The position numbers and the translations under genes were made by a program. The notes under the pieces were generated by a model. That model was not told the DNA's origin. It ran no database searches and saw only the letters and a program-made list of their open reading frames with translations. 64,000 nt of DNA from a virus. The first letter of the stretch is position 1, and each line of letters begins with the position of its first letter. Location of the stretch: positions 61,331 to 125,330 of IMG/VR virus record IMGVR_UViG_3300003154_000789. One strand, written 5' to 3'. Shown one piece after another: positions 1 through 61,454 of this stretch.

Positions 1-394
1 ATTGAAGCGTAGCCTCAGGATCGAAATTCAAAGCCTCATCGATAGCTTTTTCCATGGCGGCAGCTGGAGTCATATTTCTCCACTCGTAGTCGTCTACGGC
101 ATTCAATAACCCACGCAGATACTTACGCTGAGTATCGTTCAGAATGCTGTTACTTTCTCCAGCATGAAATCTTCCAACACGACCACGTTTATTCCTTTTC
201 AATTCCGGTTCTTCGCCCTTATAATACATAGGCTCCCCGAAAAAAGATGAAGCTGACATACATATCAATCTCAAGAGCGGAGACTTGATATCGTAAGCTG
301 GTCCACCCATAAAGTTCATGTGGGTATCTTTAGGAATTTCCAAAACATCACTCGGTGTTGCTCTAAGCACTGTTTTCTTTTTGTTTATGCTCAT
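1..394 (-). CDS. Ro60/TROVE-domain RNA-binding protein, N-terminal part (runs off left edge)
   Basis: Manual translation from ATG at 394 (RBS GGAGG): MSINKKKTVLRATPSDVLEIPKDTHMNFMGGPAYDIKSPLLRLICMSASSFFGEPMYY..., open to position 2. The N-x-x-GG-x-AY...S-F-x-GE-x-x-YY pattern matches the TROVE N-terminus. Not in the ORF track. Confidence 0.75.
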   Translation of the reverse strand, partial: MSINKKKTVLRATPSDVLEIPKDTHMNFMGGPAYDIKSPLLRLICMSASSFFGEPMYYKGEEPELKRNKRGRVGRFHAGESNSILNDTQRKYLRGLLNAVDDYEWRNMTPAAAMEKAIDEALNFDPEATLQ

Positions 395-6617: not shown

Positions 6618-6645
6618 CTGATAACTCCTTTATTTAATTGACTTG

Positions 6646-6720
6646 TCTGGTCGGCAAGATTTGAACTTGCGATCTGATGCGTCCAAGGCACCCGCGGTAA
6701 CCAGGCTCCGCTACGACCAG
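6646..6720 (-). tRNA. tRNA-Pro(UGG), no encoded CCA
   Basis: CTGGTCG/CGACCAG acceptor; GGTGC-CTTGGAC-GCATC anticodon arm; GCAAG-TTCAAAT-CTTGC T arm. Confidence 0.92.
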
Positions 6721-6727
6721 TTTGTGC

Positions 6728-6868
6728 GTGGAGAGAATTTTTTAACAACAGTATTGTCTTATGACTCTTGCTCTACCAGCTGAGCTACATTCCTATTTAA
6801 GGAATGATGAGATTCGAACTCATGACACAGAATTTTGAATGAAGTAACTGTTATCTTCACTGCTCCAC
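6728..6868 (-). ncRNA. Y-RNA-like ncRNA 1 (YrlA-like) with circularly permuted tRNA-like module
   Basis: Terminal stem GUGGAG/CUCCAC; CAGUGAAG...GUUACUUCA motif; T arm (6807-6823) precedes a hairpin-closed acceptor-like stem (6788-6806), then a D arm (6770-6785). Confidence 0.8.
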
Positions 6869-6870
6869 TT

Positions 6871-6942
6871 TTGCGGGGGTGGGAATCGAACCCACGTATC
6901 CAGATTTATGAGACCTAGTTGGCGACCAACAGCCTCCCCGCG
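6871..6942 (-). tRNA. tRNA-Met(CAU), initiator-like but atypical
   Basis: CGCGGGG/CCCCGCA acceptor with C1:A72 mismatch as in fMet; loop CTCATAA; T arm GTGGG-TTCGATT-CCCAC; short D arm. Confidence 0.75.
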
Positions 6943-6948
6943 ATAAAA

Positions 6949-7719
6949 TTATTCTTTTTTCTCTTTTCTAAAGGAGAATTTGTCAAAGCCATGTTTGGCT
7001 ATCCGATCTTTATCTGTCACCTCAATCATAATTGGGGACTTGCCACCCATCACTCCGCCGATAAACATAGACAACTCCTGAAAAGCATTGAATGGATTCA
7101 CGATCTTATAAAAGTCTATGTCCTTTAAACATTTATTCTTGAACACTCTGCCTTTTTCTGCATAGGTATAGATAGGGTTATAAGCAATCACTATCACAGG
7201 CGAGTCGAGTTCAAAGTGAAGAGCAGCAACATCTTCTGATATAGAACCTTGTTTATCAAACAATGACTTAAATCTTTTTCTTATGGTCATGACTTTGACC
7301 TTTGCTCCACTGAATATACCACTTCTTAAATTGTTTTCGAGATTTATCTTCGAGTGTTTGGTAATTACTTTTTCAAATGCATCGAATGTGTAAATAAATT
7401 CGGTTATTGCTTTGCCAACAATGCGTTTATAGTAATCATCATATGTTTTTATAGTATACATAACCTCTATGCAGAAGTATATCTTTCCGCAGAACAGTAT
7501 GATGTGTTTTGAAACTACTTTTAAATCATCACTGTCTATTTTCTTTACTCGAAAATCAAAGATCTCGTCATTGATTTTTAACAACTTATCACGTAATTCT
7601 GGCTGCTTTTCCAATGACTCTGTTATTTCTTCTTCTTTTCTTTCATAGATTACGTTTGGATCTATACCGTAACCCAGTGCTTTGTCATAGTAATCGTGAT
7701 ACTTGCTGAAAATTCTCAC
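6949..7719 (-). CDS. hypothetical phage-type protein
   Basis: 256-aa ORF, MRIFSKYHDYYD...HGFDKFSFRK. Confidence 0.75.
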   Translation of the reverse strand: MRIFSKYHDYYDKALGYGIDPNVIYERKEEEITESLEKQPELRDKLLKINDEIFDFRVKKIDSDDLKVVSKHIILFCGKIYFCIEVMYTIKTYDDYYKRIVGKAITEFIYTFDAFEKVITKHSKINLENNLRSGIFSGAKVKVMTIRKRFKSLFDKQGSISEDVAALHFELDSPVIVIAYNPIYTYAEKGRVFKNKCLKDIDFYKIVNPFNAFQELSMFIGGVMGGKSPIMIEVTDKDRIAKHGFDKFSFRKEKKE

Positions 7720-7728
7720 GTCAACCTC

Positions 7729-7944
7729 CTATGCAAGAGGAAATTCGCTGTCAAATATGTCAAACGCATCGATTTGTTTAACAATTTCTGTTTTTTGGCT
7801 ATTCATAAAGTTGATAATATCTGTATCTGCTCCCAAGTTTACCAACTCATTGAAGCATTCATAACAAATGTAACCATGTACTGATGAAAGTCTATCACAT
7901 AAAATGTTATCACAACCTTTTCGAAAGCAAGCTTTTACACCCAT
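7729..7944 (-). CDS. small Cys-containing hypothetical protein
   Basis: C-x4-C...C...CYEC; likely start MGVKAC. Confidence 0.55.
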   Translation of the reverse strand: MGVKACFRKGCDNILCDRLSSVHGYICYECFNELVNLGADTDIINFMNSQKTEIVKQIDAFDIFDSEFPLA

Positions 7945-8210
7945 TGTTTTTTCCTCTATGAAACAAAAAACCCCCGTCAATTTTCGTTGGCGAGGGTTCA
8001 AAGAAATCAATGAATATTCAGACGCTAATCTCTTCTATTACCCCCGATGTGTATTGGGTATAAATATCCTGTTAACCTTGTGGGTATTAAGTAATATCTA
8101 TTTTCGATTTGATTAATCCGTCTTTTCATCTTTTCCTTTTAAGTTAATAAAACCAACGTGGAACGATGGTTCAACTCTTTGATCCCTTGGATCATGAGAT
8201 AAAAAAGTAA

Positions 8211-8347
8211 GTGGAGAGAACATTTGGAACAGGGTTTTTGTTTTAGCTTCCCAGGCAAGATTTTTTGGGGCCGGGGATAGGATTTGCACCTATAATCTAT
8301 TCATTATGATTGAATTGCTGAAGTATCTGTACCTTTCACTACTCCAC
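8211..8347 (-). ncRNA. Y-RNA-like ncRNA 2
   Basis: GUGGAG/CUCCAC terminal stem; UAGUGAAA...AUACUUCA motif; GGUACAG/CUGUUCC inner stem; T-arm-like AUAGG-UGCAAAU-CCUAU at 8277-8293. Confidence 0.7.
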
Positions 8348-8589
8348 TACTTGTTGGTCACTGTCGCTACGCCTTCCTCATTGCTGAGGGCATTGGGTCT
8401 CTCCCAACCACCTTTGACCTGAACTATTGAACAGGTTGTGATCAAGTTTTCCGGGTACTCCAGAGCTAACCGGGTTTATAACACTTCTGGATAGTGTCGA
8501 AGTGAGTATTCTGTCTAAGTTTTATTCCTCACATAACCTACTTACGTCAGAGCCACACTGTGGATGCTTTACACAGGTTCTAATCTTCA

Positions 8590-8790
8590 TTAAGCCTTTA
8601 CAACATTGACTGCTGCAGGACCTTTGTCGCCCTGTTCAATGTCAAAAGAAACTTTGTCGCCTTCAGCCAAGGATTTAAACCCATCAGCTTTGATAGCGGA
8701 AAAATGTACGAATACATCTTTACCATTAGCTTGTTCGATGAAGCCAAAACCCTTGCTGTCATTGAACCATTTAACGATACCGTTTGCCAT
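8590..8790 (-). CDS. cspA: cold-shock protein
   Basis: [13 protein letters not shown]...DVFVHFSAI (RNP1/RNP2); strong RBS AAGGAGG. Confidence 0.96.
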
Positions 8791-8909
8791 TTACGTATAA
8801 CACCTCCTTTTAGTTTATTTTTTGTTTCACTGCCAAGGGTGTTACATAGCGAACGGTATTGCTAGCGAACGGAACTGTATTGCCTTGTACTTATGATGAA
8901 ACTTAAAGA

Positions 8910-8979
8910 GCGGAGAGACACTTCGAATACGGTGTTGTTTTCATTTCCATTGAAGTAACCGTGTTCTTCACTGCTCCAC
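8910..8979 (-). ncRNA. Y-RNA-like ncRNA 3 (minimal copy)
   Basis: GUGGAG/CUCCGC stem; CAGUGAAG...GUUACUUCA motif; GAACACGGU/ACCGUAUUC inner stem. Confidence 0.7.
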
Positions 8980-8986
8980 TACTTAT

Positions 8987-9167
8987 GACAGAGAGATTAT
9001 TTGAAGTTCGGAGATAAACAAGTCGCGGCTTTCATGGAGAAGCCCGCAGCAACCCACGACACATATGTTTTATGTCGCAAAATTAACAGGAACAAACTCT
9101 ATTATACACCAATATACAATTTACAATTGTAGTTATATGAAGTATCCGAATATCTCACTACTCTGTC
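8987..9167 (-). ncRNA. Y-RNA-like ncRNA 4 (multi-hairpin insert)
   Basis: GACAGAG/CUCUGUC stem; UAGUGAG...AUACUUCA motif; UUCGGA/UCCGAA inner stem; internal hairpins. Confidence 0.65.
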
Positions 9168-9214
9168 TATGAATAACGTCTCTTGAAGAGACGATAATTC
9201 CTTTCATATTTTAA

Positions 9215-9242
9215 AGATAATCATTCTCTTGTATTTGTCAAG
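9215..9242 (-). promoter_or_regulatory. putative sigma70-type promoter upstream of the ncRNA/csp cluster
   Basis: TTGACA (9242-9237), 16-nt spacer, TATCTT (9220-9215) on the minus strand in AT-rich intergenic DNA. Confidence 0.45.
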
Positions 9243-9690: not shown

Positions 9691-11133
9691 TTATTCAAAC
9701 TTCCGGCAATCTTCCTCATCGCTCTCATAGCTTTGAATATTGCCGTGTAGATACTCAGTTGTGAGCTTTAATAAATCAAGCTCATTGTTCAGTTTCGGAT
9801 CATCAAGAACTCTATTAAGGAGAAATTTCAAGATATTTCCTATTTGAATTCCTGGCTTCAAATTGAAGATTTCCATGAGTTTATTCCCATTTATCTTCAA
9901 GTCTCTTATTTCGAAGCCATTGCTTTCACGATAGATCTCCAATATTTTATGCTCAAAATCTTTCTGTCTTTCTGTGACAGCGACCCCTTTAAGCCCATTA
10001 CCGAGTCTTTCAGCAGCACGTAGTTTGAACAGTGGAAAGTTACCTATCTTTCCCTCTGTCATATATTCTTTTCCTATTTCAACTCTTCGGATGAATTTAC
10101 GTATAGCTGAATCTGTCCACTCGCGTGTGAAATGAAACATGTGAAACTTAACAAGCATAAGAACCTGCTTTGTAGTTTCTGCATCATATTTTAGACGTCT
10201 AAGAAAATCTCGTGCTAACTTGGCACTAACCATCTCGTGTTTGTGAAACGTGGTTCTCTTTTCGTGATCATCTTTGGTTACTCTCCGAGTTTCTGGCTTC
10301 CCAATATCGTGTAGCAAGCCAGCCAATCTTATTACCAAATTACTTTCACAATGATCAACAGTGTAAATGAGATGGTTAAACACGTCATATTTATGATATT
10401 TGTTGTCCTGTTTGACTCCTACACAGGCATCCAATTCCGGAGATATGTATTCAAGTAACCCGACTCGTCTTAAAAATCGAAGGTATTTACTTGGTCTTTT
10501 AGACATCAGGATTTTATTGAACTCTGCTCTGATAACTTCTACCGGGCATTTGCTAATTAAAGCTGCGTTGCTTTTTATAGCGTCGATCAATTCATTGTTG
10601 ATTGTGTATTCTGTACGAGCAGAAAGTGATATTGCACGAAGCATACGAATTGGAGATTCTTTAATACGCTCATTTGGACTACCATTAGAAGACAATCTTC
10701 TATTTACAATGTCTTTTCTACCGCCAACAAGATCGATTATATCCTTTTTGGACGAAAAATTAATCGGTAAATAAAGAGCATTTATTTTAAAATCTCTGAA
10801 TCTTACATCTTGTTGCAAAGTGTTGCTTGGATCTGAGAGTTGTTTCTTACCTTTTCTTGGTAAAGTAATTTGTGCCTCTATTGGATCATCAAAAGCTTTA
10901 AACAGTATGATGTTGATTTCAAATAGATCACTGGTTCTAGCCAAACTAACCTCTTTTATGCTCCCATATTGCCGCAAGAATGTCTTTATACTCTTTAAGG
11001 ACAGATTTCTTACAACAATATCCAAATCTGAATTACTTTTGTTTCTCAAAAAATCCCGCACAAAACCACCAACAATGAATACCTCTGCTTTTGTCTCTCT
11101 ATCGAGACGCTGCAATACTTCGATGGTTTTCAT
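9691..11133 (-). CDS. CCA-adding/poly(A) polymerase-family nucleotidyltransferase with HD domain
   Basis: GGFVRD...DLDI (motif A), RDFKINAL, RMLRAI, HKYDVFNH...LLHDIGKP (HD); likely start MKTIEV at 11133. Confidence 0.9.
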   Translation of the reverse strand: MKTIEVLQRLDRETKAEVFIVGGFVRDFLRNKSNSDLDIVVRNLSLKSIKTFLRQYGSIKEVSLARTSDLFEINIILFKAFDDPIEAQITLPRKGKKQLSDPSNTLQQDVRFRDFKINALYLPINFSSKKDIIDLVGGRKDIVNRRLSSNGSPNERIKESPIRMLRAISLSARTEYTINNELIDAIKSNAALISKCPVEVIRAEFNKILMSKRPSKYLRFLRRVGLLEYISPELDACVGVKQDNKYHKYDVFNHLIYTVDHCESNLVIRLAGLLHDIGKPETRRVTKDDHEKRTTFHKHEMVSAKLARDFLRRLKYDAETTKQVLMLVKFHMFHFTREWTDSAIRKFIRRVEIGKEYMTEGKIGNFPLFKLRAAERLGNGLKGVAVTERQKDFEHKILEIYRESNGFEIRDLKINGNKLMEIFNLKPGIQIGNILKFLLNRVLDDPKLNNELDLLKLTTEYLHGNIQSYESDEEDCRKFE

Positions 11134-11161
11134 TTTATTTTTTATCTCCTTTACAGATTTA

Positions 11162-11486
11162 CGATTTCCTATTTTATTTTTTTGATGATTTTTTATCTTT
11201 CGACCACGATGATGGTCTATCCAGTGGGCATACTTCGGGATCACACGCTACGGGAAACTTGCATTTTATGAGCTTATGTTCACAAGTATCGTCTTCTTCC
11301 CCCAAAAATTCACAGTCATTTCTTAATACATCCCACAGTTTTTCGGCCTCATCGGACCTCTGGTTGAATATTTTGGATTGTTTTGTCAATATTTTCACTT
11401 CTTTCTTGAGATATTTTAGCCTTTCTATATCCATAGCGAATTCCCGTTTTATTTTTTTTGAAGATTTTTTATCCTACGACCATGAT
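11162..11486. repeat. imperfect ~50-bp direct repeat pair (about 11162-11213 and 11438-11486)
   Basis: cgatttcctattttatttttttgatgattttttatctttcgaccacgat vs cgaattcccgttttattttttttgaagattttttatcctacgaccatgat. Confidence 0.6.
11174..11434 (-). CDS. hypothetical protein
   Basis: ORF with Cys cluster CEHKLIKCKFPVACDPEVC. Confidence 0.55.
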   Translation of the reverse strand: MDIERLKYLKKEVKILTKQSKIFNQRSDEAEKLWDVLRNDCEFLGEEDDTCEHKLIKCKFPVACDPEVCPLDRPSSWSKDKKSSKK

Positions 11487-16979: not shown

Positions 16980-19049
16980 CTACTTGTTTTCTTTGTTTGC
17001 AACAGAAGCCACAATCTTACTCAATATGGGCATTTCCTGAAAATCACCAGGTCTAAACGCTTTTCCTAAAATTTCAGATTTAAGATCTTCTCCTTTCTCG
17101 AAAGTTTCATTTACGGCTCTATCTACAGCAGCATCATGTGTTGATTCCTCTGTTCCATTTTTCAAGATGTTCCAGAGTACACGTGTCATTGATTTCATGT
17201 TACGAATGGTGGCTTGGGCAGACCGCTGTTTATTCTGTGTCCTGATCAGAAGGCTTCTTGCATTTTTGTTTTCGTCAAAACTGCCTTCTTCATTCAATCT
17301 TGCAATATAACCGGAGTACCAAGCACGTTTGAAGAAAAAGCCTTTAATACGATTTGCCAACGAATACAATTCCATGTTTTTCATGGCGTCGATATTGGAG
17401 ATTTCCAGAGCATTCGCCAATTCTGAATTTGAACTGAAGTTTGGATGTTCACGCGTGATTTTTACAGCAGTTTCCAATACATCTGGATGAGTTCCCAAAT
17501 CGACTTCAATTTTTACAGTCTTCTCTGCAATTTCTGACTCATCTGTTTTCAGATGTTCTAAGAACTCATCGCACGGATCAGCGGTTTTATTGCGTTTATA
17601 AATAGCGATGACAGGATCTTCAGTCTTACTGCGGTCACTATTGGGATTTGACACTTCGATTTCGCTAATTCTCGCTGGATCAGAAATGAGATCGTCAACT
17701 GGTTTGTCAGATTCTTCAAGGATAAAATTCGGTTTTGTTTCGACATCATCGGTGTTAGTAATCGTAGAACTTTTTTTGACCTCTTTTTCTTCACCAACAA
17801 CGATGATATCTTGCGTTTTAATATCTATGACTCTTCCACTATCACAATCGATTTCAATGTTGCCATGTTTTTTTGTCTCCTCAACACCTACCATAGACTC
17901 ATACTGGGAAGAGGATCTGTTCCAAACCATGCAACTTCTTTGATCTACCTTACCACTCTCTGTGGAGGTAGTTGTCGGGATCGTGGGGGTTGTGGACTGG
18001 GGGCCAACTGCTTTTGACACAACCGTTGAAGGCATATTGGTCGCTGTTACTTCCGTTTTTTTTACCCCATTGTGATAATGGCAACCATGTGTAGCATTCC
18101 AATTCGGATTTGTGGTATGCGTGGTCACACCGGATCCAACTTTTGTACTTACCCAAATCTTACCGGTTCTCGGAATCTTTTCCGTCACATACAGATCTTT
18201 TATTTTAGTATCTGCAGTTATCTCTTTTCTTACATCAAAAAGAAATACGGAATCATCCGCGAGAGTTTCCACATCCACATCGCTTTTCTTCAATGGAATG
18301 AATCTCATTGGACCGGTTTGATACAAATTCGCCATCTTGTTGTAGCGAAATATCGCCATTTTGAGAAAATCCTTTTCACTTGCCACCAGAAGCAGTTTCA
18401 TTGGGCGGATAATAGCAATCTCAAGGGGTCTGCTGTCCCTGAAAGCAGCCATCTGAAATGGATTGTTACCACTGAATGCCATAACAGCGTAAGATCCGGA
18501 AATTCTCTTACAGGTCTCCTGAATGGCTTGTGTGGTGAAAGGTTCGGTACCATTGTTGGTATAGTGATGAAGTAATCGAAAAATTGCTTCACTGTCCACG
18601 TTACCATCCCTCTTGCAGCCGAGGTTGGTAAAAATCTTTTCATGGTTTGTCAGCGTGCCATTATGTACGCCAACAATGTCCCCAATTTTGATTGGGTGAT
18701 TGTTTTTGTTGTTTTCGGGTCCTGAGGCACCACCGGTAGACGGTTTGCGACAATGTCCGATCGATATCTTTGCAGGACGAACTTTCTTTCTCCAGATTTT
18801 GAGGTAGCCCTCATAATCTTCTTCCGTATCTCCAAATCTTGCGATAAACTCCTGGGCTGAGATACCCATTTTCAATCCCATATAATCGCAATCAGCGAAC
18901 ATTGTAGCGACACCGGTGGCGTCCTTTCCACGAGTCTGTGTGAGTGTGAGTAGTTCTGTTGTCAGAAAAATCATAGATTCCTGCCGAATTCTTTCCAACC
19001 TTTTCTCTTGAAATTCGCCACAGGCGAGAGCTCCGACCAGTCCGCACAT
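16980..19049 (-). CDS. class II (Ntn) glutamine amidotransferase #1 with long C-terminal extension
   Basis: MCGLVG, RGKDATG, GHCR, NNHP, HNG, DSE. Confidence 0.88.
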   Translation of the reverse strand: MCGLVGALACGEFQEKRLERIRQESMIFLTTELLTLTQTRGKDATGVATMFADCDYMGLKMGISAQEFIARFGDTEEDYEGYLKIWRKKVRPAKISIGHCRKPSTGGASGPENNKNNHPIKIGDIVGVHNGTLTNHEKIFTNLGCKRDGNVDSEAIFRLLHHYTNNGTEPFTTQAIQETCKRISGSYAVMAFSGNNPFQMAAFRDSRPLEIAIIRPMKLLLVASEKDFLKMAIFRYNKMANLYQTGPMRFIPLKKSDVDVETLADDSVFLFDVRKEITADTKIKDLYVTEKIPRTGKIWVSTKVGSGVTTHTTNPNWNATHGCHYHNGVKKTEVTATNMPSTVVSKAVGPQSTTPTIPTTTSTESGKVDQRSCMVWNRSSSQYESMVGVEETKKHGNIEIDCDSGRVIDIKTQDIIVVGEEKEVKKSSTITNTDDVETKPNFILEESDKPVDDLISDPARISEIEVSNPNSDRSKTEDPVIAIYKRNKTADPCDEFLEHLKTDESEIAEKTVKIEVDLGTHPDVLETAVKITREHPNFSSNSELANALEISNIDAMKNMELYSLANRIKGFFFKRAWYSGYIARLNEEGSFDENKNARSLLIRTQNKQRSAQATIRNMKSMTRVLWNILKNGTEESTHDAAVDRAVNETFEKGEDLKSEILGKAFRPGDFQEMPILSKIVASVANKENK

Positions 19050-56581: not shown

Positions 56582-56836
56582 CTAAAAGAATAAGTACTTA
56601 ACTGCCCAAATTATAGCTGGAACAGACATACCAGCTATTACGAGCATGATATCACGAACATAATTTGTTGTGCGTTGTCCTTTTGTTTGTGAATCGACGG
56701 TTATCTGCATTTTATTTTCGTTACTCTTTTTCAAGGGCTGACCTGGAATATACTTCTCTAATGGTTCCCCAGCTATATAGTCATTGGTTTTTGGTCTAAG
56801 ACCAGGTACTTTAGGCTTTTTGATACTATTTATCAT
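56582..56836 (-). CDS. hypothetical membrane protein
   Basis: C-terminal TM helix. Confidence 0.55.
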   Translation of the reverse strand: MINSIKKPKVPGLRPKTNDYIAGEPLEKYIPGQPLKKSNENKMQITVDSQTKGQRTTNYVRDIMLVIAGMSVPAIIWAVKYLFF

Positions 56837-56857
56837 CTTACATCTCCTTTAATAAAT

Positions 56858-57424
56858 CTATGTGAAAAATATTTCATGTTCAAGAGCCGGAAATTTAGGA
56901 TTCAATTCCCTGATAGATTTCAAAGAATAATAACCTTTTCCAGTTTCTTCGGATCTCTTTTTTATTACGCTGATGAATGTGATGGGAGCTTTACATCTTG
57001 GAGAAATTGATCCGGTGATGTTAGCTGCAAGAGGTGTTGGTCGATGTTTCTTAGGCACATGGTCATAGCATGCATGATAAGCTTTCATAATTTCAGGGAA
57101 AACATTGTGAAAACCATCAGATCTCCAACATGAATCATGATTAGATGTGTTATCCCATTCTTTAAGAGGAATATTTCTCCAATCAGACATATTGGAAATA
57201 GCAACAAAGACCGAATGTTCTTTTACGACAATATAGTGCAAATACTTCAGATAGCGTGCTCTCCAACTCTTGTGAAAAGTGTTGCCATCTCTTTCGTAGC
57301 CGTGATTTTCAGCACATATTTCGAGCGTCATAAGAATACCAGCGTTTGGAATAATATTTTTGTTATGGACAACGAATTGAGAAGCAAGAGCTTGCATAAT
57401 ACTTTCTGGGCGAATGATATCCAT
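56858..57424 (-). CDS. hypothetical protein
   Basis: 188-aa ORF. Confidence 0.65.
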   Translation of the reverse strand: MDIIRPESIMQALASQFVVHNKNIIPNAGILMTLEICAENHGYERDGNTFHKSWRARYLKYLHYIVVKEHSVFVAISNMSDWRNIPLKEWDNTSNHDSCWRSDGFHNVFPEIMKAYHACYDHVPKKHRPTPLAANITGSISPRCKAPITFISVIKKRSEETGKGYYSLKSIRELNPKFPALEHEIFFT

Positions 57425-59874: not shown

Positions 59875-61454
59875 TTAATCTTCCGAATCGCCCGCTTTTA
59901 AGTTCATTATTGGTTTGACTCGATGAAGGATCTTTGCCGTTGGTGAAATAGCTGCCTCAATGATCTCAGCTGGCTTGTACGCCCCTTTAAGTTCATCGGT
60001 TGGCAATACACTTGTGTAGATACCCTTGGCTGCCATAGAGGCTCTGGCTTCCTCTAAGTTCAACTTTTCCTTGGCAATAGTTCTTGAATACAGACGACCC
60101 GCACCATGAGGAGCAGAAAAGTTCCACTCGGAGTTTCCCTTACCCTCACAGACCAGAATACCATCTTCCATATTGAAGGGAAGGATAAATTTTTCTCCGG
60201 CGTAAGCAGAGACAGCACCTTTGCGGATGATGAAATCTTTGTAATTGATACAGTTATGAACTGTAGTTATCCTTTCGAAGATGTGATCCTCTCGTACACG
60301 CAGTTCTTCAAGGATAGCCTTCATCATAACTTGATGACTCATGTACGCATACCAATTAGCGAAGATAGTATCAATGAGGTACCCATACATGTGCTCACCG
60401 TGTAGAGGTTCAAGACCCTTAGGTGTCTTTGGTACCATATCACGGACACCTTGAAACATTTCCTGCCACTTTTCCTTGGGCTGTTTCTCTTTGATTAAAT
60501 CAAACATCTCGGTCATTGCAACGGACTTCTTGTTTTTCAGGTCTTTTACTGCAATGTCTTGCCAGTATGTGGCGATACGCAGACCTAGATTACGAGAGCC
60601 GGAATGGGTGGTTATACAAGGATAGCTTCTCTCGTCTATGCCGATTTCAATGAAATGATTCAGTTGTTTGTTACTACTATTCGATTCGAATAGCGGATAG
60701 GTCATTTCTGCCTATCTCTCCGGCTTCATTTTATTATCCCGGAGGTCGGACTGTCGCTTATCTTTCGATCTTCTTCACTCAGTCTCTCACGGCACATGCA
60801 TGCATGTTTCCGCCCTGTCGTCCATTTTTATAGGACTTCCAAGTCAATCAGAAGAAGTTTCGGTATTAAACACAAACACTTTGGACCCGGAGGCAATCAT
60901 TTACCACCACCCAAGGTGCCGATAGAATTGATAACATACTGAGCGAAGTCCTTCTTCTTCTTTCTGATGGATACCCTTTCACAGAGTGAAAGAAACCAAT
61001 CAAGATCGATTTTTGGACAACGGTGCTTGCTGCCATATCGTTTGTTGAACGCCAACGTAAACTCGACAGCTTCTTTCTGTACTGTTGCCCAGGGAAAATC
61101 GTTCTTCATGTCGAGCTGTGGTTTGGGATGTACTTCTCCACCCATTGGTATCCTGGCACGTATTCTCTGGTCAAGTTTGTCAAAATCAATACCGCTTAAG
61201 ACGATTGGATCCAATCGCACCATATGCATTTGGCAATAAAGATCAACGCCAACAACATTTGGAATTACATTATCCCCCATAGGCATAGTAAAACCGATGA
61301 CAGCACCTTTGCCAGCATGAGTATCAGGCATGATTTTGATAGGATTGATAAATGAATAGTTGTTTATAAACGCATAAATCTGGCTGGTTGTTGTCTCATC
61401 TATATTATCAATCATTACATCTGCTGTTGTGTACTTTCCTTTGAAGGTGAGCAT
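59875..61454 (-). CDS. rtcB: RtcB 3'-phosphate RNA ligase, two exons (61454-60903 and 60660-59875; 445 aa spliced)
   Basis: MPDTHAGKG, VGVDLYC, GTLGGG|NHFIE, THSGSR, HN, RKGA, SAPHGAGR, DE...AYK. Confidence 0.93.
60661..60902 (-). ncRNA. group I self-splicing intron (242 nt, no ORF) in rtcB
   Basis: Exon ends in U, intron ends in G; P1 with U.G wobble; 6-bp P10 (AUGAUU/AAUCAU); P3 CUUCUUC/GAAGAAG; P7 GACUG/CAGUC; P8 and P9 hairpins; removal restores the frame and GGGNH. Confidence 0.92.

Follow-up and report, generated by a model that had tools for sequence, protein, structure and literature searches.

The locus and its Y-like RNAs

We analysed a 64,000-nt stretch of phage DNA (the window; positions 61331-125330 of the 141.5-kb viral contig IMGVR_UViG_3300003154_000789 from IMG/VR, contig coordinates being given as G000:C1), in which the minus strand carries a family of small structured RNAs resembling the Y RNAs of Ro60 proteins, together with the beginning of a Ro60/TROVE gene. 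CheckV estimates the contig to be 54% complete, which implies that the phage genome is probably larger than 200 kb. Almost every gene around the Y-like RNAs lies on the minus strand, and the sequencing runs that contain parts of the region are all DNA metagenomes, mostly from groundwater, ponds and other freshwater.

Four elements, all on the minus strand, lie within the window: element 1 (6728..6868, 141 nt), which is of the YrlA type; element 2 (8211..8347, 137 nt); element 3 (8910..8979, 70 nt), a minimal form; and element 4 (8987..9167, 181 nt), separated from element 3 by 7 nt. A scan of the whole contig added three copies just outside the window (elements 5-7; G000:C1:57026-57121, 56911-57016 and 56813-56898, minus strand). 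R2, a covariance model rebuilt from homologues, scores elements 1 to 4 at 49.3, 50.6, 61.2 and 34.0 bits, respectively (for element 4, E 6e-7 over the full model), and the outside copies at 27-50 bits; it finds no more copies in the 141 kb, giving a phage total of seven. With filters off, R2 matches 4/4 window elements from end to end (E 2e-13 to 6e-7), the runner-up in the region reaching 8.7 bits, and elements 1 and 4 were outside its training set.

The same parts follow one another in each element. Both ends pair in a closing helix of 6-7 bp, which is succeeded by a single bulged pyrimidine (C or U) and an AG/CU pair; next come UGAR, a copy-specific inner helix ending in CRGW, the motif UACUUCA and a variable apical part, and the RNA is completed by the 3' strand of the inner helix, a short spacer, (U)UCU(C) and the 3' closing strand. 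We refer to the recurrent portion as the handle, whose internal loop has UGAR on one strand and GUU on the other, and to the apical part as the head. The closing stem reads GUGGAG/CUCCAC in the first two elements; that of element 3 is GUGGAG/CUCCGC, which includes one G.U pair, and that of element 4 is GACAGAG/CUCUGUC (7 bp, the bulge being U). It differs again in the outside copies (AUGGCG, AAGAUG and UAGGUG). All four window elements have (G)WUACUUCA at the 5' junction and share, with identical spacing, a 22-nt 5' core, AGUGAR-N5-CRGW-UACUUCA, which element 4 matches exactly (AGUGAG..UUCGGAUACUUCA). The core is found four times in the window against 0.12 expected from dinucleotide shuffles, a count seen in 0/100 shuffles. 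Minimum free energy folds recover both helices in every copy.

It is in their heads that the elements differ. Element 1 bears a circularly permuted tRNA mimic composed of a T arm, a closed acceptor-like hairpin and a D arm, and its cmscan alignment includes the T loop UUCGAAU and the D arm GUAGCUCAG..GGUAGAGC. Element 2 has an anticodon-arm-like hairpin (loop AUCAUAA, which contains CAU), an imperfect T arm and one further hairpin, and element 3 has only a 4-bp mini-hairpin (UUCA/UGAA). The head of element 4 is about 120 nt long and forms several hairpins (fold z = -2.66), and the outside copies likewise carry unrelated hairpin sets.

A preliminary description of the window, made from its letters, had placed four elements on the minus strand, and on reading the sequence they are present at the coordinates that it gave. 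The closing stems and the YAGUGA and UACUUCA motifs that it reported are seen in 4/4, apart from the G.U pair in the closing stem of element 3, and the differing apical domains (tRNA mimic, partial mimic, mini-hairpin and multi-hairpin) are equally borne out. Its inner stems, said to be copy-specific and yet paired, stand overall, with the qualification that element 2 pairs at 6/7 positions (one U.U mismatch) and element 3 at 8/9 (one C.A mismatch). Its family of four in the genome was an undercount, the family having seven members, three of them outside the window. Two other candidates were rejected: a core-like site at window 18568-18594 lies inside an open reading frame (ORF) of 689 aa and has the wrong spacing, and a possible eighth RNA at window 8348-8560, 200 nt of non-coding sequence separating cspA from element 2, is no more stably folded than its shuffled versions (z = -0.58).

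All seven copies share the strand of the Ro60/TROVE gene (G000:C1:60057-61724, minus, 555 aa), which starts at window position 394 and crosses the left window edge, its window part (1..394) holding the N-terminal 131 codons. The encoded protein matches Pfam TROVE at 33.4 bits (cut-off 23) and phrog_850 at 119.8 bits over residues 115-542. Among solved structures, the Ro60 of Thermus phage phiLo (PDB 9KOP/9L5Y, E 2e-12) is its best match, and its nearest cultured relative is gp540 of Bacillus phage G (41% identity over 95% of the protein); the closest relatives overall come from an IMG/VR phage (77% identity) and from two contigs of Polyangiaceae metagenome-assembled genomes (MAGs; 52-53%). The outside copies are located 2.9-3.2 kb downstream of this gene.

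Covariation of the two helices

The first covariance model, R1, was built from seven minimal members of 67-71 nt and recovered 46 members; as a detector it missed the long-headed copies, which was remedied by R2 and by turning the filters off. A first closing-stem script had criteria so lax that 68% of shuffled controls passed, and it was dropped as statistics. In an alignment (A2) of 45 distinct homologues, pairing reaches 94.6% in the closing helix and 83.4% in the inner one, values that are somewhat inflated by the fitting of A2 to the model structure. Changes on both sides are found in A2 at 15/17 pairs of the two helices, and most paired positions take all four Watson-Crick orientations. 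The covariation score of 0.633 compares with 0.09-0.14 when the partners are slid by 1-3 columns, and 0/500 shuffles reach it. The covariation support is strong, given this large margin and closing stems that are visibly unrelated in sequence. The covariation proposed in the preliminary description is borne out, and is seen in both helices. Sequence conservation is a property of the 5' strand, where all invariant positions lie except the 3' UCU.

These data bear directly on the possibility that the elements are selfish or non-functional repeats amplified within the genome, such as miniature inverted-repeat elements or degenerate tRNA pseudogenes. Such an origin would suit the tandem copies, the GUGGAG closing stem found in three of them and the tRNA-derived pieces in the heads; however, the helices vary in sequence yet pair, with four Watson-Crick types at most positions, the family is shared by phages with only about 27% identity between their Ro60 proteins, and copies stand only beside TROVE instead of being dispersed (7 sites in 141 kb). 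We regard this origin as highly improbable.

Linkage to TROVE across phages and bacteria

The exact core is present in 60 IMG/VR contigs, and 23 of the 46 records that could be searched for TROVE are positive. In these 23 records and the present contig, the core with up to two mismatches (<=2) is found at 70 sites, versus 2 for a reversed-pattern control; most of the sites form arrays of 2-7 beside TROVE and on its strand, with 1-7 copies per TROVE record. R2 was also applied to 36 loci that bear the core and come from records either negative for TROVE or unsearched; it matched none of the negative ones, and its single match fell in a record not searchable for TROVE. Across the genomes of 185,579 species, a stricter core pattern returned 40 loci, about the chance expectation, two of which R2 matches; both belong to Polyangiaceae MAGs and hold a single minimal element ~90 nt upstream of a TROVE gene whose product is 52% identical to the present one. 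Loci picked by Ro60 protein similarity alone contain arrays in five of seven cases, and the remaining two end at a contig edge. Linkage to TROVE is strict, in that all model matches open to checking fall in TROVE-bearing records. The connection with a Ro60/TROVE gene that had been claimed for the four elements is therefore sound, since the gene is a real TROVE gene on the same strand and the scaffold is found only where TROVE is present. Calling the set unusually diversified is justified relative to the published cases, with one or two Y RNAs per phage, but not relative to the present group of TROVE-encoding phages, in which arrays of 3-7 are common.

Several cultured phages carry the family. 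At least six copies, whose 5' block has the variant form GA(A/U)GCGG, occur in Bacillus phage G, and four of them lie within a 1-kb gap upstream of gp540. Handle variants in the family include AGUGA, AGCGG and GGUGA in the 5' block and GUUCU or GAUUC on the 3' side. In Xanthomonas phage MET23-P3 (43 kb), the gap immediately upstream of TROVE is filled by five tandem copies, with RusA and lysozyme genes on either side; Brevundimonas phage Bambus carries a single copy. Minimal homologues of 67-71 nt are found in six other phage contigs. HGTV-1 yields only 16.5 bits, and a BLASTN search of cultured phages with elements 3 and 4 gave chance-level matches only.

Two more matches to the handle model in phage G, both unannotated in the record, lie at L117:7717-7872 (+), 2 kb upstream of gp540, and at L117:15299-15363 (+), 4 kb downstream of gp540 and inside a tRNA/tmRNA cluster. 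A weak handle match in the crAss-like phage cr111_1 (L120:3749-3878, +; 23.7 bits, E 0.004) lies 1 kb upstream of TROVE and encloses a tRNA-Gln; it may represent a handle around a whole tRNA, or chance.

One handle, exchanged heads

Heads have been replaced on a constant handle. For example, four related phages have an identical 29-nt 5' half of the handle, on which are mounted a full permuted tRNA mimic (a 133-nt element, in two phages), a T arm with another hairpin (a 117-nt element) and the minimal head of a 70-nt element. Some heads in related arrays are tRNA bodies whose arms keep their native order. Several related arrays also contain the handle itself in circularly permuted form, running from GUUCU through a short capped helix, N-AGUGA and the inner helix to UACUUCA, where it replaces the anticodon arm of tRNA-shaped RNAs. 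These permuted RNAs, 125-139 nt in length, were located at L109:2528-2652, L099:1244-1377, L099:688-815 and L094:1340-1467 on the minus strand and at L101:2771-2909 and L106:2496-2626 on the plus strand; acceptor, D and T arms are all present, a CCA is encoded in one of the RNAs, and the Rfam tRNA model scores them at 41-58 bits, while ARAGORN calls none of them a tRNA. Because sequence and geometry are kept through both head replacement and circular permutation, the handle is predicted to behave as a self-contained binding module. In addition, hairpins in the heads of the outside copies show covariation when set against the orthologous RNAs of the closest relative (Ro60 77% identical), indicating that the heads are also under selection.

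The permuted forms also invite the view that the RNAs are clients of Ro60 and not its regulators, in which case the handle would mark structured RNAs or tRNA-like precursors for Ro60-assisted folding, trimming or decay, and the heads would be the products. Ro60 does bind misfolded non-coding RNA precursors (PMC4201824), and the permuted tRNA-ended forms, including the one with an encoded CCA, resemble Ro60-tagged tRNAs. However, element 3 and its six homologues of 67-71 nt are essentially headless, so the handle itself must be the functional unit, and all characterised terminal-stem RNAs linked to Ro60 are stable partners. A client role of this kind seems to us quite unlikely.

Comparison with known Y RNAs

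At gathering thresholds, Rfam 15 reports only cspA and tRNAs in the window. Element 1 matches the YrlA family (RF02553) over the full model at 47.0 bits (E 1.1e-8 in 3.1 kb), below the gathering score of 69, and this match rests on the T arm, the closed acceptor-like hairpin and the D arm, a permuted head that elements 2-4 do not have. The latter give no YrlA match at E up to 10, and the outside copies match nothing in Rfam; the relationship to YrlA put forward in the preliminary description thus extends, at a sub-threshold score, to element 1 and is not detected in elements 2-4. Heads in related arrays provide further sub-threshold YrlA matches. Against the Rfam tRNA model (gathering 29), element 1 scores 17.5 bits and element 2 scores 22 bits, the latter a partial match over the anticodon-arm-like hairpin and imperfect T arm, and ARAGORN finds only five true tRNAs in the region and does not call the elements tRNA.

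Metazoan Y RNAs and the multi-copy stem-bulge RNAs of nematodes have a bulged terminal helix as the Ro60 site, a varying loop or head and several paralogues per genome. The present RNAs are alike in their bulged terminal helix, variable head and several copies, but no homology is detectable (Rfam Y_RNA is unmatched at E up to 10), and hosts, transcription and processing differ.

The bacterial counterparts are closer. YrlA, which mimics a tRNA, is a Y RNA to which the bacterial Ro60 (Rsr) binds in Salmonella Typhimurium and Mycobacterium smegmatis (PMC4201824); YrlA-type RNAs with the motif GNCGAAN0-1G were predicted near Ro60 in 254 bacteria and 22 phages, and more Y RNAs escaped those searches (Chen et al., 2014, PMC4201824). 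The present family resembles YrlA in its terminal stem formed from both ends, the head of element 1, its position on the Ro60 strand and its RNA-repair neighbours. Unlike YrlA, it includes an additional outer helix interrupted by a single bulged base, numbers seven copies in this phage where one YrlA is usually reported, scores below the gathering threshold (element 1) or goes unmatched (elements 2-4), and uses another 5' motif, N-AGUGAR and CRGW-UACUUCA standing in place of GNCGAAN0-1G in all seven copies.

Smaller second Y RNAs, namely YrlB in S. Typhimurium and M. smegmatis and Yrn2 in Deinococcus radiodurans, were obtained by Ro60 immunoprecipitation (PMC4201824). Like them, most of the present elements are extra RNAs, with reduced or different heads, encoded beside a tRNA-like one; in contrast, those loci have two RNAs and no reported shared scaffold, whereas the present family has 3-7 RNAs with one 22-nt core of fixed spacing. 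In phiLo, two Y-like RNAs encoded upstream are ligands of the phage Ro60 (phiRo60), which is also able to form an assembly with the PNPase of the host (NAR 2025, PMC12135203). Here too a phage Ro60 is accompanied by Y-like RNAs upstream on the same strand, and phiRo60 is the closest solved relative of the present protein; the phiLo RNAs (Yrl1 and Yrl2) differ in being two and in being defined by a CGAA motif, and R2 is silent at that locus. In Listeria phage CKA15, three very abundant transcripts lie upstream of an Rsr-like gene, and the authors suggested that they might be Y RNAs (PMC12282133). Y RNAs are modular, and Ro60 contacts mainly their 5' strand, the sole strand conserved in bacterial Y RNAs (Wang et al., bioRxiv 10.1101/312249); conservation lies on the 5' strand in the present family as well. 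In the literature covered, which takes in neither the Chen et al. (2014) supplement nor the 2020 Annual Review, we found no account of arrays of up to seven RNAs with one handle, of the handle motif or of the permuted forms.

Gene neighbourhood

A gene for a CCA-adding tRNA nucleotidyltransferase with an HD domain (9691..11244, minus; Pfam PolyA_pol, PolyA_pol_RNAbd, tRNA_NucTran2_2 and HD; phrog_2244, 162 bits) lies directly upstream of the RNA array. From there the minus strand reads: element 4, element 3, cspA, element 2, two ORFs, tRNA-Met, element 1, tRNA-Pro, small ORFs, tRNA-Ile, an ORF, tRNA-Leu, a NUDIX gene, an ORF, tRNA-Arg, TROVE, small ORFs, a gene for an Rnl2-type RNA ligase, tRNA-Tyr, an ORF, elements 5-7, an ORF and a gene for an HD_4-domain protein. 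Element 1 is closely hemmed in by tRNAs: only two bases separate its start from the discriminator of tRNA-Met (CAU; 6870..6943, minus, ARAGORN), whose CCA is not encoded, and tRNA-Pro (UGG; 6645..6720, minus, ARAGORN; Rfam tRNA 60.5 bits) starts 7 nt past its end, so that cleavage by RNase Z and RNase P would release element 1.

The cspA-type cold-shock gene, with a thermoregulator in its 5' untranslated region (8545..8914, minus; Rfam RF01766, 79.9 bits against a gathering score of 78; Pfam CSD, 103 bits), sits between elements 3 and 2, and its thermoregulator region starts exactly at the end of element 3. Just left of the window, the three outside RNAs are flanked, downstream of TROVE, by the Rnl2-type ligase (L064:2694-3374, minus; PF09414, 91 bits), tRNA-Tyr (L064:2357-2441, minus) and the HD_4 protein (L064:188-727, minus). 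An RtcB RNA ligase is encoded about 50 kb from the Y-like RNA/TROVE region (window 59896-61349, minus) in two open frames ~240 nt apart, which cover Pfam RtcB positions 12-153 and 154-425; the split fits an intervening sequence such as a group I intron.

This setting brings up another explanation, according to which the elements are accessory RNAs of a tRNA operon that act without Ro60, either as decoys for defence nucleases of the host that cleave tRNA or as processing or spacer modules of the tRNA array, and travel with TROVE only through a shared RNA-repair neighbourhood. The arrays do lie in or beside tRNA clusters here and at most related loci, many heads are tRNA-like, and a CCA-adding enzyme, an RNA ligase and RtcB are in the neighbourhood. 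Nevertheless, the MET23-P3 array stands directly upstream of TROVE with no tRNA cluster or repair genes nearby, the single minimal copy of the Polyangiaceae lies 90 nt upstream of TROVE, and no TROVE-negative locus yields a model match. Moreover, a decoy role would not account for conservation of the handle on one strand. An activity independent of Ro60 is, in our judgement, unlikely.

Proposed function of the Y-like RNAs

On balance, the elements are probably a divergent Y-RNA subfamily, outside Rfam, that partners the phage Ro60 encoded 6.3 kb further along the strand, a reading that is supported as far as sequence analysis reaches. They represent a widespread variant of the known Ro60 and Y RNA system and not a new kind of system, and their members are formally outside Rfam YrlA.

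Several observations weigh on the other side. Elements 1-4 sit 6.3-8.8 kb from TROVE, compared with typically 4 kb in known cases, and tRNAs and about a dozen ORFs intervene. The bacterial Ro60 motif GNCGAAN0-1G (PMC4201824) is not literally present, and no model match was obtained in the loci of phiLo, Vibrio phiKT1024 and Desulfovibrio phage 7757, all of which encode Ro60, so the handle is not universal among Ro60 phages. A sigma-70-like promoter candidate, TTGACA-16-TATCTT (9214..9241, minus; 10/12 matches in a consensus scan), ~45 nt upstream of element 4, is weak because the number of promoter-like sites in the region is at chance level. There are no RNA runs among the sequencing runs that contain the region, all of which are DNA metagenomes, and the inflated pairing in A2 belongs on the same side.

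If the elements are Y RNAs of this Ro60, we infer that they would be expressed, processed and bound by the protein, and that their heads would have partners and an effector role, along the following lines. The RNAs would be co-transcribed with the neighbouring CCA-less tRNAs, and tRNA-processing enzymes would excise them, as the position of element 1 directly between two tRNAs suggests. The conserved 5' strand of the handle would then dock on the outer face of Ro60, and the head would set the tethering target of the Ro60 particle or serve as a gate or decoy; for tRNA-like heads, partners of the published type would be PNPase or other tRNA-recognising enzymes. The setting fits RNA repair or quality control during infection, given the CCA-adding enzyme, the Rnl2-type ligase, the HD protein and the tRNAs, with RtcB elsewhere in the window.

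In a bolder and more tentative view, the phage Ro60 would act as one ring whose programming comes from a set of exchangeable adaptor RNAs. The portable handle of ~45 nt stands on up to seven different heads per genome and also occurs permuted on otherwise complete tRNA bodies; each head would direct Ro60 to a different enzyme or RNA, or mimic a different tRNA to absorb host defence nucleases that target tRNA. If true, the Ro60/Y-RNA pair would be a general adaptor platform in phage-host conflict, beyond quality control with a single partner.

Work on the variable domain of Y RNAs and on how it selects partners for Ro60 has been confined to a handful of cases, each organism contributing one or two RNAs. 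The present family offers a natural series in which many heads occur on one handle, along with headless and end-permuted forms, and its presence in cultured phages (Bacillus phage G and the Xanthomonas and Xylella phages of the MET23-P3 / Usme group) makes experiments feasible. The Rfam YrlA model misses most Ro60-linked phage RNAs, and a handle model would permit their annotation.

Other structured RNAs at related loci

In two of the related records, matches to other structured RNAs lie close to Y-like RNAs. In record G026, a ROOL RNA (L110:5987-6618, +; 321 bits) and a raiA-motif RNA (L110:7303-7542, +; 116 bits) are located 1.7-3.3 kb upstream of TROVE, with a group of Y-like RNAs and tRNAs on each side. 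In record G032 (225 kb), a partial match to bacterial RNase P RNA class A (L115:4736-4949, -; 46.9 bits, E 2e-11, gathering 100) adjoins the Y-like RNAs within a cluster of more than 40 phage tRNA genes.

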